Assembly (NCBI GenBank): GCA_011049045.1
Contig: DSCO01000022.1
Coordinates: 1,260-65,259 of the forward strand
Direction: 5' to 3'
Source: Methanomicrobia archaeon
GTDB taxonomy: Archaea > Halobacteriota > Syntropharchaeia > Alkanophagales > Methanospirareceae
DNA length: 64,000 bases
The notes below the pieces were generated by a model, which saw nothing but the letters and a program-made list of their open reading frames with translations, was not told the DNA's origin and did no database searches. Made by a program: the position numbers and the translations under genes. Below are positions 50,613 through 55,399 of this stretch, one piece after another (position 1 is the first letter of the stretch; every line of letters starts with the position of its first letter).

Positions 50613-50662
50613 ACATTCCGCTACCACGCCCATTCCGAAGGTTGCGGTTTGCATGTGCAAGT

Positions 50663-50670
50663 TTTATATA
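50663..50670 (+). promoter_or_regulatory. TATA box (tttatata) with conserved downstream leader gtgattggggca..aatatgg
   Basis: same TATA/leader architecture repeated at 55053. Confidence 0.55.
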
Positions 50671-50691
50671 GTATTCAAACTGTTCTCGTGA

Positions 50692-51288
50692 TTGGGGCAT
50701 GAATATGGTAAGAAAACCGATGAAGGTAAGCTTCTGGAAGACGCTCACATCTTCACACATCCTGTAAGGCACCGGATCGTGGAGCTGCTCGCGAAAAGGC
50801 CGATGCACATCGATGCGCTAAGCAGAGCGTTAGATGAAAAGAGGGGGCTCGTCGCCTATCATCTTGATACCTTGCAAGAGCACGGATTCGTGAAGAGCGA
50901 GTACGGTATCTTCCTTTTACAAGAGCTAGAGCAAATCGTAACGGCACTGAGGGTGTACAGGGTGACCGATAAGGTGGTGGAGGTGAAGGTGAAAAGAAAA
51001 AGGAGACAAAATTTAAAAGCCAGATCCATCCGGGACGCCATCACCAGCATTGGGTGCGGGACCTCTGGGTTCTCCAGGTTTGTCTTCATTTACCCAACCA
51101 CCATCCCAGCCAGGACCATCTTGCACGCCATCACCAGCATTGGGTGCGGGACCTCGTGTTTCACTAGCAATTACACCCGGAGAAAGGATGGTTGCCACAA
51201 CTATTGCAGTCAAAAATATAACCAGTATCTTTTTCATGTACTCATCACCGCCTATCTCGTTTTGCACCTACATGTGCAAAATGAATAG
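50692..51288 (+). CDS. ArsR-family wHTH regulator, paralog 1 (functional part likely ~100 aa; C-terminal extension doubtful)
   Basis: IFTHPVRHRIVELLAKRPMHIDALSRALDEKRGLVAYHLDTLQEHGFV; ATG of paralog is out of frame here by 1-nt deletion, ORF only open from TTG. Confidence 0.5.
   Translation: MGHEYGKKTDEGKLLEDAHIFTHPVRHRIVELLAKRPMHIDALSRALDEKRGLVAYHLDTLQEHGFVKSEYGIFLLQELEQIVTALRVYRVTDKVVEVKVKRKRRQNLKARSIRDAITSIGCGTSGFSRFVFIYPTTIPARTILHAITSIGCGTSCFTSNYTRRKDGCHNYCSQKYNQYLFHVLITAYLVLHLHVQNE
51013..51237 (-). CDS. small secreted repeat protein (signal peptide + 2x RGPAPNAGDGVxDG)
   Basis: MKKILVIFLTAIVVATILSPGVIA signal; perfect 32-nt DNA duplication; antisense to extension of 50692 ORF. Confidence 0.45.
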   Translation of the reverse strand: MKKILVIFLTAIVVATILSPGVIASETRGPAPNAGDGVQDGPGWDGGWVNEDKPGEPRGPAPNAGDGVPDGSGF

Positions 51289-51314
51289 GGGCAAACCACC
51301 TTAAAAGGTTTTAA

Positions 51315-51605
51315 GGTCTTATTCGGTTTAATCTTCCTCCTTTTTATGTACAACTCACAGAGCTGCTTGCGGAGCGGCCGATGCCTATCGATGCTCTGAG
51401 CCGTGCCTTAGATGAAAAGAGGATGCTCGTCGCGTACCATCTCTCTACGTTGCAAGAGCGCGGATTCGTGAAGAGCGAGTACGGTATCTTCCTTCTGCAA
51501 GAGCCAGAGCAGAGAGTCACGGCGCTGCGGGTGTACCGGGTGACCGATAAGGTGGTGGAGGTAAAAAGAAGCTATCCGCTTCCCCTGTTCCGCGCTCAGA
51601 TATGA
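51315..51605 (+). pseudogene. 5'-truncated ArsR-family paralog fragment
   Basis: ...ELLAERPMPIDALSRALDEKRMLVAYHLSTLQERGFV; frame open upstream without start codon. Confidence 0.55.
51344..51374. repeat. 29-bp junction repeat tatgtacaRctcacagagctgcttgcgga, copy 1
   Basis: 28/29 identical to copy at ~53793. Confidence 0.7.
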
Positions 51606-51756
51606 AGAGCGATAAAAAAAGGTGTTACGAGGTGCTATTTGGTATAGGATATATCGAAGCGGTTTTAATGTTTATGGCGATCATATACATGAAATCCCGA
51701 TCAAAATAGGCAATTTGTAGGCTACTTATACCTATTTTTAGGTAAAGGAGATTAGC

Positions 51757-52134
51757 ATGATGAGCGAAGAAAAAGCTGAATACGTACTTGTATCGCTCTG
51801 TTTGTTGGGGGTACCATGCAGATTTCATGGCAAGCGGGAAGTTATGGGGCACCGGATCGGGCGCCCATCCCTTATCGCTAGGCTCGAAAAGCGGTATCGA
51901 CTGCTTCCACTTTGTCCGGAGCAGCTTGGGGGGCTTACTACACCGAGACCAGCGGCGGAAGTCATAAGCAGCGGACGGGTGCGAGCGAAGGACGGTGCGG
52001 ACGTCACCGAGCAGTACGAACGAGGCACCGAGATCGTACTTGAGATCGTGGAGCGGTACGGCATAAAGCGGGCGTGGCTACTCAAGGATAGCCCGGCATG
52101 TGGTCGCGGCTACGGGATCGTGCAGGAAAGATAA
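51757..52134 (+). CDS. DUF523 (TudS-like Fe-S) protein
   Basis: VSLCLLGVPCRFHG...LLPLCPEQLGGLTTPRPAAEV...SPACG. Confidence 0.6.
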   Translation: MMSEEKAEYVLVSLCLLGVPCRFHGKREVMGHRIGRPSLIARLEKRYRLLPLCPEQLGGLTTPRPAAEVISSGRVRAKDGADVTEQYERGTEIVLEIVERYGIKRAWLLKDSPACGRGYGIVQER

Positions 52135-52251
52135 GTACCTGCTAAAGAGGTACTTACCAGAAGTACACAACCTTTTATAAATGGAAATAGTATTCTCTTT
52201 TGTTGAGATGGGGGTGGAGTTAAAAAGGCAAGGAAGCTGACTGCATCATCG

Positions 52252-53127: not shown

Positions 53128-53619
53128 TTGGATCGCAGGATTCTCCGGCTCACTGGCGAGGCATTCGGTCAAGGAGCCTTACTGACGCAGGCAGACCTAG
53201 CGATCCTCTTGAACGAGAGCACGAAAACTGTTGCGCGGCATATCAAGGACCTGGAGACTCATGGCCACGTCGTGCCAACGAGAGGCAGCTGGAAGGACAT
53301 CGGTCCCGGGGTGAGTCACAAGAAACGCATACTGGAGCTTTACCTCAAAGGCGATGAATACACGGAGCTAGAGCGGAAGACCAAGCACAGTGGCGAAGCG
53401 ATAATGCGGTACGTGAAAGACTTCGCCCGGGTCCTGGTTCTTACCGAGGAAGAGTACTCAGCGGCAGAGCTCAGGATCGTAACCGGGCTATCGGACAGGA
53501 TAATTCGAGAGTACCAGGAGCTTATTGAGCAGTATTCAGGTCACGAGTACCGTGAGCGGTTAGAGCACCTGAGAGCGATCTTCAAAAAAAGGCGACGATC
53601 GGCGACCCCCGGGAGCTAG
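53128..53619 (+). CDS. hypothetical protein (possible DUF1670-type, HTH-containing)
   Basis: 163 aa; family assignment from memory only. Confidence 0.35.
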   Translation: MDRRILRLTGEAFGQGALLTQADLAILLNESTKTVARHIKDLETHGHVVPTRGSWKDIGPGVSHKKRILELYLKGDEYTELERKTKHSGEAIMRYVKDFARVLVLTEEEYSAAELRIVTGLSDRIIREYQELIEQYSGHEYRERLEHLRAIFKKRRRSATPGS

Positions 53620-53792
53620 GGGTCTCAGGCACCTCAGGGAGGTGGTCTCCATGAACGTTCCCGCGATGATCGAAGCGAAGGTGGCGAACTCCTTGAAAGG
53701 TGTGCTCATAGACCTCATCCAGCGCGAGTACCAGTTCATCGCCGGTGAGATAATATCCAGGAGATGTTCGCCAATGATGTCTTTTTCACTAT

Positions 53793-53822
53793 TATGTACA
53801 GCTCACAGAGCTGCTTGCGGAT
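53793..53822. repeat. 29-bp junction repeat, copy 2 (followed by 12-codon ArsR-like remnant in frame with ubiA-like start)
   Basis: tatgtacagctcacagagctgcttgcgga. Confidence 0.7.
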
Positions 53823-53906
53823 CCGGTACATTTAAATATCGTCCGAACCTCATCTCTACGTGGTCTGATACAGACCGCCAACGCACCTGCCAAACCGCAA
53901 CCTACC

Positions 53907-54839
53907 ATGACCCTCAAGGAAAAAGCGATTGCGTGGTTCAGGCTCACTCGACTCCCCCTCTATTCCCTGGCCTTTATCGCCTATAGCATGGGTGCGGCCG
54001 CGGCGCACGCGACCTATCAGCAATTTGATGGGGCGGTCTATGCGCTCGGCGGTCTGGGGCTCATATTGATTATGCTGAATGCGGTGATCCTCAATGAGTA
54101 CGTGGATTACCCCTCCGATTGTCTCAATAAGAACCGAGGCGCGTTCAATGCGGGTTCAGGCGTGCTGGTAGAGGGTAAACTCGGATTTTCTGAGGTAAAG
54201 GCGGGTTTCGTCCTCATACTCTGTGCAATCCCCGTTTGTGCCTATGTGCTCATCCAGTTAGCAACGGAAGTCTCGGCAACTTCCGTTCTCGCATTGGTAT
54301 TTATTGGTATCTTCTTTGGCTGGGGATATTCCGCGCCACCGCTTAAATTCAGCTATCGCGGTCTCGGCGAACTTGTCAATAGTTTGATGCACGGCCCCGC
54401 GATTGTGCTTGCCGGGTTCGTACTTCAGACCGGAATGTGGACGAGCTCATTGCCCTGGCTCTTGGGCACCCCGCTCTTTTTCGCTACACTTGCTGCAGCG
54501 ATTTTGGCTGATCTTCCTGATTACCGATCCGATGCTGAGATCTCCCGAAAGACCGTTCCCGTCATCATTGGACCACGATTGACGGCACTACTCGCGTCCG
54601 GGTTCATTGCGCTTGCCGTTATTGCTGGTTTAGCGCTCTGGTATGTTGAACTCATTAAATATCCACTTGGACTGCTGATTCTTATTGTTGTCCCCAATGC
54701 AGTGATTCAAGAACGCGCAGTAATCACAATGATTAAAAAAGCTGATTATGATCGCCACATGACGGATATTATGAAATATGCGGATTTACAAATGCTTCTG
54801 TTTGGACTCTTACCATTACTAGCGTTCTTATTAAGATAA
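53907..54839 (+). CDS. UbiA-family prenyltransferase
   Basis: NEYVDYPSD Asp-rich motif, second DLPDYRSD motif, ~8 TM. Confidence 0.7.
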   Translation: MTLKEKAIAWFRLTRLPLYSLAFIAYSMGAAAAHATYQQFDGAVYALGGLGLILIMLNAVILNEYVDYPSDCLNKNRGAFNAGSGVLVEGKLGFSEVKAGFVLILCAIPVCAYVLIQLATEVSATSVLALVFIGIFFGWGYSAPPLKFSYRGLGELVNSLMHGPAIVLAGFVLQTGMWTSSLPWLLGTPLFFATLAAAILADLPDYRSDAEISRKTVPVIIGPRLTALLASGFIALAVIAGLALWYVELIKYPLGLLILIVVPNAVIQERAVITMIKKADYDRHMTDIMKYADLQMLLFGLLPLLAFLLR

Positions 54840-55052
54840 AATTCTGAACTAGGAGACGGAGTGGTCGACAGCGATCTTGCTGAGAATCTCGCGCTCAATG
54901 AAATCTTATATTCAGCTTTCTTCCCTCTCAAAGATGCAGATCAAGCCCAGCTGGCCGCACAGGGCGATCTCCTGCAACCGCCAGCCGCTCGCAGCCGGGT
55001 CCGAACTGTCTCGACTTGAGCATCCGGGTAGCTAAGGTTCATCTGTGTGCGT

Positions 55053-55060
55053 TCTATATA
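55053..55060 (+). promoter_or_regulatory. TATA box (tctatata) + conserved leader, paralogous to 50663
   Basis: gttctatata...gtgattggggcagaaatatgg. Confidence 0.55.
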
Positions 55061-55093
55061 CCGTAAAGTTACTAATGTGATTGGGGCAGAAAT

Positions 55094-55399
55094 ATGGAAA
55101 GAGAACCGTCAGAAGGTAAGCTTTCAGAAGACTTTTACGTCCTCATTCATCCCATACGTTACCGAATCGTCAAATTGCTTGCCGATAAGCCGCTGCACGT
55201 AAATGCAATTGCCCTCGCGATGGGTATTGAAAGGCGGCACATTACCTACCATTTACGGATCCTGGAGGACTCTGGATTCATAACGAGCAAGTACGGAGTC
55301 TCGGAAGAGAAAAAATTGAGGGGAAAGGCACTAAGGGTGTGTACGCTTACTGACAAGGTCGCGGAAGTGAAAGCGGCGTTGAAAAAGGATCTGGAGTAG
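55094..55399 (+). CDS. ArsR-family wHTH regulator, paralog 2
   Basis: IHPIRYRIVKLLADKPLHVNAIALAMGIERRHITYHLRILEDSGFI. Confidence 0.7.
   Translation: MEREPSEGKLSEDFYVLIHPIRYRIVKLLADKPLHVNAIALAMGIERRHITYHLRILEDSGFITSKYGVSEEKKLRGKALRVCTLTDKVAEVKAALKKDLE

Follow-up and report, generated by a model that had tools for sequence, protein, structure and literature searches.

Pieces of ArsR-type genes at the boundaries of accessory cargo in a probable mobile element of an ANME-1 archaeon

Several copies and pieces of a small regulator gene, arranged in direct orientation around unrelated cargo, raise the question of whether DNA is exchanged at a dedicated site or by some less specific route. The question arises here for the region between 50.6 and 55.4 kb of a stretch of 64,000 nucleotides (nt), hereafter the window, from contig DSCO01000022.1 of a Methanomicrobia archaeon. 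This region contains two ArsR-type genes, P1 and P4, a piece of a third, P3, and between them genes and gene fragments of other origin. An earlier note on this DNA had interpreted it as a series of cassette-like modules, each headed by an ArsR-type gene and reshuffled by recombination at a site inside that gene. In our reading, which we consider probable, an ANME-1 archaeon carries here an integrated mobile element that is probably decaying, and the region is the variable accessory zone of that element, in which recombination has been recurrent at ArsR-type genes and is not site-specific. The comparison relies on ~100 related loci gathered in three scans, 60 of them non-redundant and 43 of these at least 4 kb long; the homologues of the ArsR genes of the window come from Ca. 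Methanospirareceae (ANME-1) genomes.

The stretch is a mosaic whose pieces meet at ~51006-51012, 51359/60, 51566, 53101/2, 53779/80, 53821/2 and 55404-55426 (features are listed in Table 1). P3 is cut at both ends, the second copy of the joint at which it begins has decayed, the 5′ end of P4 has been replaced and P1 is damaged at both ends. Self-comparison of 49.5-56.5 kb recovers the repeats seen in the earlier note: 206 nt shared by P1 and P3 (50782-50987 and 51360-51565, 85% identity), 42 nt at the joint (51332-51373 and 53780-53821, 86%, the copies lying 2,448 nt apart) and 32 nt around the leaders of P1 and P4 (50688-50719 and 55077-55108, 88%). The 29-nt core of the joint (51345-51373 and 53793-53821) is identical at 28 of 29 positions. 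When motif matches were counted in the window at three mismatches or fewer, this core and the 21-nt leader GTGATTGGGGCANNAATATGG were each found exactly twice, and none of 100 shuffled controls contained any match. TATA-like sequences precede both leaders, TTTTATATA (50663-50671) 17 nt upstream in P1 and TTCTATATA (55053-55061) 16 nt upstream in P4. All these repeats are present where they had been placed and none is due to chance.

The structure of the joint explains a good part of the locus. In all relatives, ArsR homology to P3 begins at 51359/51360 and ends at 51565-51573, being lost at 51566. The 29-mer therefore consists of 15 nt of non-ArsR sequence followed by 14 nt of ArsR coding sequence, and weaker similarity between its two copies reaches ~13 nt further 5′ of the 15 non-ArsR nt. 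The non-ArsR part has no counterpart among the ~100 related loci, and the joint is also without a match in IMG/VR. Since the two copies share 15-28 non-ArsR nt found in none of these loci, the joint was duplicated and not made twice, as the earlier note had argued. Moreover, 16 nt after the downstream copy lies an ArsR patch (53838-53861) collinear with P3 51426-51450, 37 nt closer to the joint than in P3, a score reached by 2 of 1000 shuffles. The right-hand copy is thus a decayed, internally deleted P3-like segment, not a bare 29-mer. This remnant, formerly described as 12 codons at the start of the ubiA-like gene, is indeed in frame with the UbiA ATG and free of stop codons, but with its patch it is longer than 12 codons, and it has no start codon. 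We rejected the idea of an in-frame fusion with UbiA, given this missing start, the conserved UbiA start at 53907, which in the alignment falls on the first residue of a homologue from the related element L068, and the fact that 38 stop-free in-frame codons are not unlikely by chance.

P3 itself had been called a 5′-truncated copy; it is truncated on that side, but it is cut at its 3′ side as well. Its reading frame matches no ArsR family above the Pfam cut-off because helix 1 is missing. In the 206 nt compared, its identity is 85% with P1 and 84% with four alleles from other samples or organisms; with foreign alleles as near to it as P1, P3 does not stem from a recent copying of P1. Two further ideas about its left end did not hold. 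The sequence catgtgcaa...atgaata resembles the region upstream of P1, as it would in a full-length copy with a deleted promoter, but 152 of 1000 shuffles reach the local alignment score. A break point common to P3 and the loci L037 and L038 was suggested by a blastn start only 8 nt off, but diverged homology continues upstream there (FCPRCRIV versus HPVRHRIV). At the downstream joint (53799-53813), CAGCTC on the non-ArsR side and GAGCTG, with which the ArsR part opens, are reverse complements separated by a 3-nt loop (CAGCTC-ACA-GAGCTG); one base of this inverted pair differs in the upstream copy. To judge from its sequence, this inversion might go back to fold-back repair when the break first arose, but its folding is not significant.

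The second line of evidence is the 5′ end of P4. P1 and P4 had been regarded as two full ArsR paralogs, and both pass Pfam HTH_20 (31 and 37.6 bits, respectively, cut-off 27) and HTH_5 (27.4 and 33.9 bits, cut-off 22); they are not close paralogues, however, as they share 41% amino-acid identity and fall into two subfamilies. The part of P4 proximal to the TATA-like sequence does not discriminate between these (16-18 of 24 positions identical to P4-type and 9-18 of 24 to P1-type genes). The adjoining patch, 55077-55130, is identical at 37-44 of 54 positions to P1-type genes versus 28-29 of 54 to P4-type orthologues, whereas the rest of the coding sequence is 79-91% identical to its own orthologues versus 53-66% to P1-type genes. 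These segment-wise identities indicate that P1 and P4 share their leader through conversion or recombination, in a patch of ~54 nt spanning the leader and the first 12 codons. The patch is equally similar to P1 and to the P1-type gene of the related element L017 (44/54 each), and a comparable patch of 50 nt, 98% identical, links ArsR copies of locus L011 that are otherwise 76-85% identical. A conserved TATA box and leader at the head of each module, as formerly proposed, are therefore shared by P1 and P4 but are not family-wide: this leader type (..TGGGGTACAATTTATG) is conserved among P1-type orthologues, and P4-type orthologues have another (..AACGTAGTGAATAATACTATG).

Comparison with relatives shows what was added. 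In L017 (Ca. Methanospirareceae E05-026), a P1-type ArsR gene, a Rad51-like gene, DUF8156 and a family-B DNA polymerase gene (PolB) are contiguous; window 50380-50989 aligns with L017 9672-10289 and window 55427-58772 with 10322-13659. Given this contiguous backbone, window 50990-55426, a block that includes P4, represents a 4.4-kb accretion. A different filling is found in L033, which stems from the same organism as L018 and L024 and is 85% identical at the nucleotide level to window 47167-50987. Its order is the gene for a 423-amino-acid (aa) winged helix-turn-helix (wHTH) protein, the small open reading frame (ORF) orf71, P1 (a pseudogene with an in-frame TAG), 1.1 kb of other DNA, a P4-type gene and DUF8156, and the corresponding gap between P1 and P4 in the window measures 4.1 kb. 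As L033 keeps both genes, the two-ArsR layout predates the split of these elements while the filling varies. The orthologues of P4 (in L006, L007, L023, L024 and L068-L070) are followed directly by DUF8156, without the Rad51-like gene or PolB; their similarity to the window extends over 55093-55403 and resumes at 56266, that is, at gene ends, which points to exchange of modules at gene borders. ArsR sequence aside, no relative has a DNA-level match to 51006-51359 or 51566-55092, the sole exception being the 47%-identical UbiA homologue of L068. The backbone is thus contiguous in one relative and otherwise filled in another, as in a variable accessory region.

Is there, then, a preferred point of exchange? 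Two or more ArsR segments occur in 15 of the 43 non-redundant loci of at least 4 kb, and 23 of the 25 adjacent pairs lie on the same strand. By the high-scoring segment pairs (HSPs) of tblastn, 43 segments are full, 20 are 5′-truncated and 13 are 3′-truncated. A full ArsR gene, TauE and ArsR residues 32-102 follow one another in L011-L016 and L029; L008 carries ArsR, two large secreted-protein genes, ArsR, a TIG protein gene, ArsR residues 77-102 and DUF8156. (Protein P0024 of L008, taken for a 77-aa truncated ArsR, is in fact encoded by a full-length gene without a start codon.) The break points within ArsR are scattered in the relatives, at residues ~30, 32, 42, 47-49, 61-62, 65, 77 and 82, and three other boundaries of the mosaic (51566, 53101/2 and 53779/80) have no sequence in common. 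An ORF and Pfam scan found no recombinase ORF in 49-56.5 kb. The proposal of recurrent recombination in ArsR-family genes is accordingly upheld by the 54-nt patch of P4, by the loci with several segments and by those in which a full ArsR gene, cargo and a 5′-truncated ArsR gene succeed one another. The proposal of a defined recombination site inside the gene is not supported, given the scattered break points, a joint that is unique to this locus and folds no better than shuffled sequence, and the lack of a recombinase in or next to 50.6-55.4 kb. Nor are the modules cassette-like throughout, as part of them are fragments: a stub of a C39-like peptidase gene, and a DUF1670 piece and P3, each cut at both ends.

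Two processes known from bacteria, homology-facilitated illegitimate recombination and Campbell-type insertion, lead to such arrangements. One homologous anchor combined with one illegitimate join brings foreign DNA to lie beside the anchor gene, and when a circle that bears part of a gene recombines by one crossover, the full gene, the insert and the 5′-truncated gene result in direct orientation. L011-L016, L029 and L008 show products of the latter kind, and so does L068 for the 3′ end of PolB; unlike a simple Campbell product, P3 in the window lacks its 3′ end. The likeness lies in the end products, namely direct repeats around cargo and conversion patches. The backbone of the element bears small ArsR-type wHTH genes of two subfamilies, the P1-type after the 423-aa wHTH gene and orf71 and the P4-type at the head of the Rad51-like-DUF8156-PolB module, and DNA of other origin has accumulated between them. 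The course of events may have been as follows. Related elements, whose ArsR genes are 75-85% identical, would recombine by homologous exchange or gene conversion inside ArsR together with an illegitimate join at the far end, each event importing cargo and leaving ArsR pieces in direct orientation. These direct repeats could later permit deletion, of which L017 may be a product, or re-duplication, as with the joint copy. The 29-nt joint would then be a scar copied by a later segmental duplication and not a recombination site, and the shared leader a conversion tract.

Some points weigh against this account. The fragment classes rest on the ends of tblastn HSPs and are approximate, and some of the loci with two segments are single frameshifted genes. 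Direct repeats of nearly 200 nt recur (206 nt for P1 and P3, 208 nt in L068 and ~190 nt around TauE in L011), which a purely random process does not obviously predict. None of the related loci contains a donor element with P3-TudS or with the small secreted gene downstream of P1, and the count of joint copies refers, within the source genome, to this contig. An attR site was not found either: no second copy of the 3′ end of the tRNA-Glu gene that adjoins the element turned up in the 1.4 kb past the window or in any related locus. Integration is only suggested, by the tRNA gene, by a frameshifted integrase and by homology to related elements starting 64 nt after the tRNA gene. Finally, we infer both the order and the mechanism of the events. 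In favour of the account, a product of the same type exists away from ArsR: in L068, the UbiA homologue lies between PolB and a convergent zinc-finger gene and is flanked by the 208-nt repeat, a direct repeat of the 3′ end region of PolB with 95% identity (203-410 and 1490-1697).

Could the history have been purely local, with tandem duplication of ArsR, decay and unrelated insertions and no exchange between elements? The copies are close together and in direct orientation, the second joint copy must stem from a local duplication, and P1 and P3 are, by a narrow margin, nearest to one another (85%). P3 is, however, equally close (84%) to alleles of other organisms. P4 belongs to the other subfamily and has orthologues at the same position in other elements, the P1...P4 layout is older than the divergence from L033, and the 5′ patch of P4 matches L017 as well as it matches P1. 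We regard such a history as rather unlikely.

A similarly modest chance is given to the idea that small ArsR-type genes act as portable homology arms, RadA-type recombination between their direct copies, which many co-resident elements carry in one orientation and at 75-85% identity, capturing, excising and swapping the intervening DNA; the Rad51/RadB-like protein encoded immediately downstream by the element itself, which has no match in IMG/VR, may assist. If true, the arms would constitute a homology-driven, recombinase-independent analogue of a cassette system, and they would explain the excess of direct orientation, the conversion patches, the 'empty' form of L017 with its single ArsR gene and the recurrent repeats of ~200 nt.

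The two joint copies might also be the target duplication or the att sites of a single 2.45-kb insertion (51374-53792), as a block whose composition is foreign lies between direct repeats of 29-42 nt. The block begins in frame in the middle of ArsR, reading through from the left repeat, and a further collinear ArsR patch comes after the right repeat; both repeats belong to ArsR-derived segments and hence do not represent a neutral target. No integrase or transposase is encoded in 51374-53792, the block is a mosaic of at least four pieces differing in GC content, and the DUF1670 element, the only piece resembling an insertion sequence, is by comparison with another contig an internal fragment without ends. 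Transposition typically produces short target duplications, and 29-42 nt is far longer. A single insertion is therefore improbable.

Still less probable, in our opinion, is a dedicated integron-like system in which the joint, or ArsR codon 30, is recognized by a site-specific recombinase that shuffles ArsR-headed cassettes. The locus shares with integron cassette arrays serial cargo in the same orientation beside a fixed platform gene and direct repeats between units; the joint is duplicated almost exactly around cargo, many loci have ArsR copies in direct orientation with cargo between them, and a tyrosine recombinase gene lies at the far end of the element, with another near ArsR fragments in L022. 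The differences are more telling. No IntI-type integrase stands in or beside the array, the only Phage_integrase match lying ~9 kb downstream and being frameshifted. The joint, absent from the related loci and from IMG/VR, is no boundary sequence conserved between loci, and the break points of the other fragments vary over residues 30-82. There is no attC-like folded site, the predicted DNA folding of the joint being no better than that of shuffled sequences (z -0.84 to +0.69). The right joint copy continues as a decayed ArsR gene, part of the cargo consists of gene fragments and not of unit cassettes, and a regulator gene and promoter-like sequences form part of the units themselves. Integrase, folded site and conserved boundary sequence were each looked for and not found: the locus is not an integron.

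An assembly artefact, that is, a contig chimeric across the repeats, is the least credible explanation. The region does contain repeats and a multicopy element, and 100%-identical contigs of two other samples (Logan SRR7787260 and ENA ERZ1742330) have their left ends within the DUF1670 fragment, at 53501 and 53666, which suggests either that the repeat broke the assembly or that those populations are arranged differently on the left. But a repeat of 29 nt, or one of 206 nt that has diverged to 85%, is unlikely to mislead an assembly at k=141 (a value taken from the contig name, k141_4001 of ENA ERZ27245514). Assemblies of three different samples are 100% identical over 53666-59109, two of them on to the end of the window, so that the structure is the same wherever they overlap. 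For the left half with the P3 ORF, there are records in NCBI, JGI and ENA, on contigs of 69.6 kb (the ENA contig just named) and 70.3 kb.

In its workings the locus resembles the moron regions of phages and integrated elements, where accretion of genes and mosaic variable regions are well known. As in these, foreign genes of differing composition, some apparently with their own promoter-like sequences, lie between conserved backbone genes, the content varies between otherwise collinear relatives, and boundaries often coincide with gene borders, as seen in the limits of P4 similarity (55093-55403) and in the Rad51-like similarity from 55427. Unlike in moron regions, a single regulator gene, complete or in part, recurs here as the mark of the boundaries, and several of the pieces are not intact morons but fragments of genes.

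Table 1. Features of the accessory zone and its surroundings (window coordinates)
Feature	Coordinates	Strand	Remarks
tRNA-Glu(CTC)	47029..47103	+	tRNA search; probable left anchor of the integrated element
Backbone gene, 423-aa protein, ArsR-type wHTH at residues 83-124	49132..50403	+	82% amino-acid identity in L018/L033
Backbone small ORF (orf71), 71 aa	50397..50612	+	Kept 5′ of P1-type ArsR in L017, L018, L033
P1 promoter region	50663..50708	+	TATA-like TTTTATATA, 17 nt, leader GTGATTGGGGCATGAATATGG
P1, resident P1-type ArsR gene	50692..51288	+	ArsR homology 50704 to ~51005
Small ORF, 74 codons, signal-peptide-like N-terminus	51013..51237	-	Internal 60-nt repeat 51018-51077 / 51108-51167; GGTGAT 8 nt before ATG
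Joint copy 1	51332..51373	+	Non-ArsR sequence (to 51359) fused to ArsR codon 30 onward (GAGCTGCTTGCGGA)
P3, P1-type ArsR piece, ~codons 30-95, cut at both ends	51360..51565	+	85% to P1; ORF 51381-51605, 74 aa, HDS44894.1
TudS/DUF523-like gene (2-thiour_desulf, 2-thiouracil desulfurase family)	51757..52134	+	Pfam
Stub of secreted C39-like peptidase gene	52252..52560	+	Peptidase_C39_2, profile 5-34 of 143 only; 22.1 bits, under the 24-bit cut-off
DUF2628 membrane protein gene, in low-GC block	52571..53038	+	Pfam
Internal fragment of multicopy DUF1670 element, cut at both ends	53102..53779	+	93.8% identical to L109 5101-5777
Decayed second copy of the P3 joint	53780..53861	+	53780-53821 (core 53793-53821) and ArsR patch 53838-53861; 37-nt internal deletion
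UbiA-family prenyltransferase gene	53907..54839	+	Pfam; 47%-identical homologue is cargo elsewhere in related element L068
P4 promoter and 5′ end	55053..55130	+	55077-55130 is the P1-type patch
P4, intact ArsR-type gene, second subfamily, heads replication module	55094..55399	+	41% amino-acid identity to P1; 75-83% to P0002-P0005
Backbone Rad51/RadB-like ATPase (55477-56268), DUF8156 (56270-56548), family-B DNA polymerase, 742 aa (56545-58773)	55427..58773	+	

P1, the resident gene, is probably decaying. As the earlier note had observed, it has lost its in-frame ATG by a 1-nt deletion, which comparison with four orthologues places after the ATG, so that TTG at 50692 is the only start in frame. 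At its 3′ end the sequence is alignable up to the normal stop, and a 4-nt insertion shifts that stop out of frame. The resulting long C-terminal extension was correctly described as antisense to a small secreted repeat protein gene: it runs antisense to the 74-codon ORF on the minus strand with its 60-nt internal repeat. This small ORF is the first piece of accreted DNA; it is absent from the source annotation and has no homologue in the related loci fetched. Another P1-type ArsR gene, encoding protein P0010 of L031 (9992-10351), shows this 1-nt gap behind its usual ATG too and starts from an ATG located further 5′ in the shifted frame (MLYGKKTIEGKLLEDAH, against ..HEYGKKTDEGKLLEDAH in the window), so the shifted N-terminus of P1 may be a tolerated variant and not a fresh lesion.

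The identities formerly given to the cargo are confirmed by Pfam for the TudS-like, DUF2628 and UbiA genes; the C39-like gene is a stub below the cut-off, and the supposed HTH protein is an N-truncated DUF1670 product. The DUF1670 fragment comprises the truncated ORF (53128-53619, profile 89-220 of 220) together with 46 codons from the start of the following ORF, from 53642. Its counterpart L109 is another contig from the same sample as L002, with three consecutive DUF1670 ORFs at 5001-6389, and the metagenome-assembled genome to which the window belongs has several copies. Full-length relatives have ~275 aa and lie mostly on short contigs (1-2.5 kb), and Methanosarcina, ANME-1, ANME-2 and several bacterial phyla have relatives with 64-70% identity. 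By this distribution of sequences, DUF1670 genes behave like a mobile repeat; of the family we found no mention in the searchable literature. GC content is 0.35-0.41 at 52.4-53.2 kb, 0.45-0.55 in the remainder of 50.6-55.4 kb and 0.55-0.62 in both flanks.

From its sequence, the whole interval from 47.1 to ~64.8 kb looks like an integrated, tRNA-Glu-adjoining, probably defective or decaying mobile element of an ANME-1 archaeon. Homology to related elements (L018, L033) begins at 47167, and an Rfam scan detected nothing but the tRNA. The gene order 3′ of the tRNA gene is small ORFs, the 423-aa wHTH gene, the ArsR region, the Rad51/RadB-like gene, DUF8156, PolB, a zinc-finger gene on the opposite strand and a tyrosine recombinase gene; DUF8156 and the polymerase match viral protein families. 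The module at 55427-58773 is 87% identical to its counterpart in L017, where it stands directly 3′ of the P1-type ArsR gene. The tyrosine recombinase gene lies ~300 nt past the window end (~64.3-64.8 kb). In L004, at ~19213-19800 (equivalent to window ~64306-64900), the recombinase is called as 165 aa only, and its C-terminal motif (..ELLGH.. SILRTTIYLRLAQVDLREAMDQVNFYV) runs on in another frame, so the integrase looks frameshifted.

Other observations concern the body of the element. The 5′ part of the 423-aa wHTH gene (49194-49583) contains a 29-nt repeat, AAAAGAAGTACAAAAACAAGACCCCTCTT, three times with spacings of 122 and 239 nt, and the homologous ORF of L033 and L018 is longer, at 544 aa, through a further duplication of this 5′ part (L033 2114-3742). 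On the plus strand, 59684-60038 is a run of 355 nt without any cytosine, the second-longest such run of the window being 39 nt. It contains a 105-codon ORF (59714-60031; A90 C0 G138 T90) whose product lacks Ala, Pro, Thr, His and Gln and has no family match in PHROGs or NCBIfam. This property is maintained in homologous elements at 93% and 82% identity (L033 7674-8025 and L070 8035-8408) and therefore appears selected. In the distal part of the element, a 65-nt direct repeat (62226-62291 and 62333-62396, ~85-86%) has its copies 105 nt apart.

What the ArsR-type genes do in these elements is suggested by their class and position. They share with ArsR/SmtB repressors the wHTH fold recognized by Pfam, but unlike ArsR/SmtB metalloregulators they score under the NCBIfam NF033788 cut-off of 55 bits (P4 43.4, P1 30.6). 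Unlike the metal sensors, they show no CXC-type site by inspection, P4 having one Cys (RVCTL) and the ArsR part of P1 none. Standing at the head of the replication module, they would rather be repressors of the element than metal sensors.

ANME-1 archaea cannot be grown in pure culture, and their mobile elements have barely been described. ArsR, integrases and this element go unmentioned in the ANME-1 virome paper, and we found no description in the searchable literature of ANME-1 elements whose cargo boundaries are recurrently marked by fragments of a single regulator gene. Taken singly, the locus is mainly a well-documented example of mosaic evolution. Together with its ~100 relatives, it marks where ANME-1 elements take up accessory genes, often genes for secreted or membrane proteins (TauE, UbiA, DUF2628 and peptidase-like proteins), and these elements leave a readable record of the process in the regulator-gene fragments at the cargo boundaries. 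If ArsR-type genes do serve as homology arms, such fragments would provide a simple metagenome marker for cargo hot spots and a handle on gene flow in a methane-cycling lineage.

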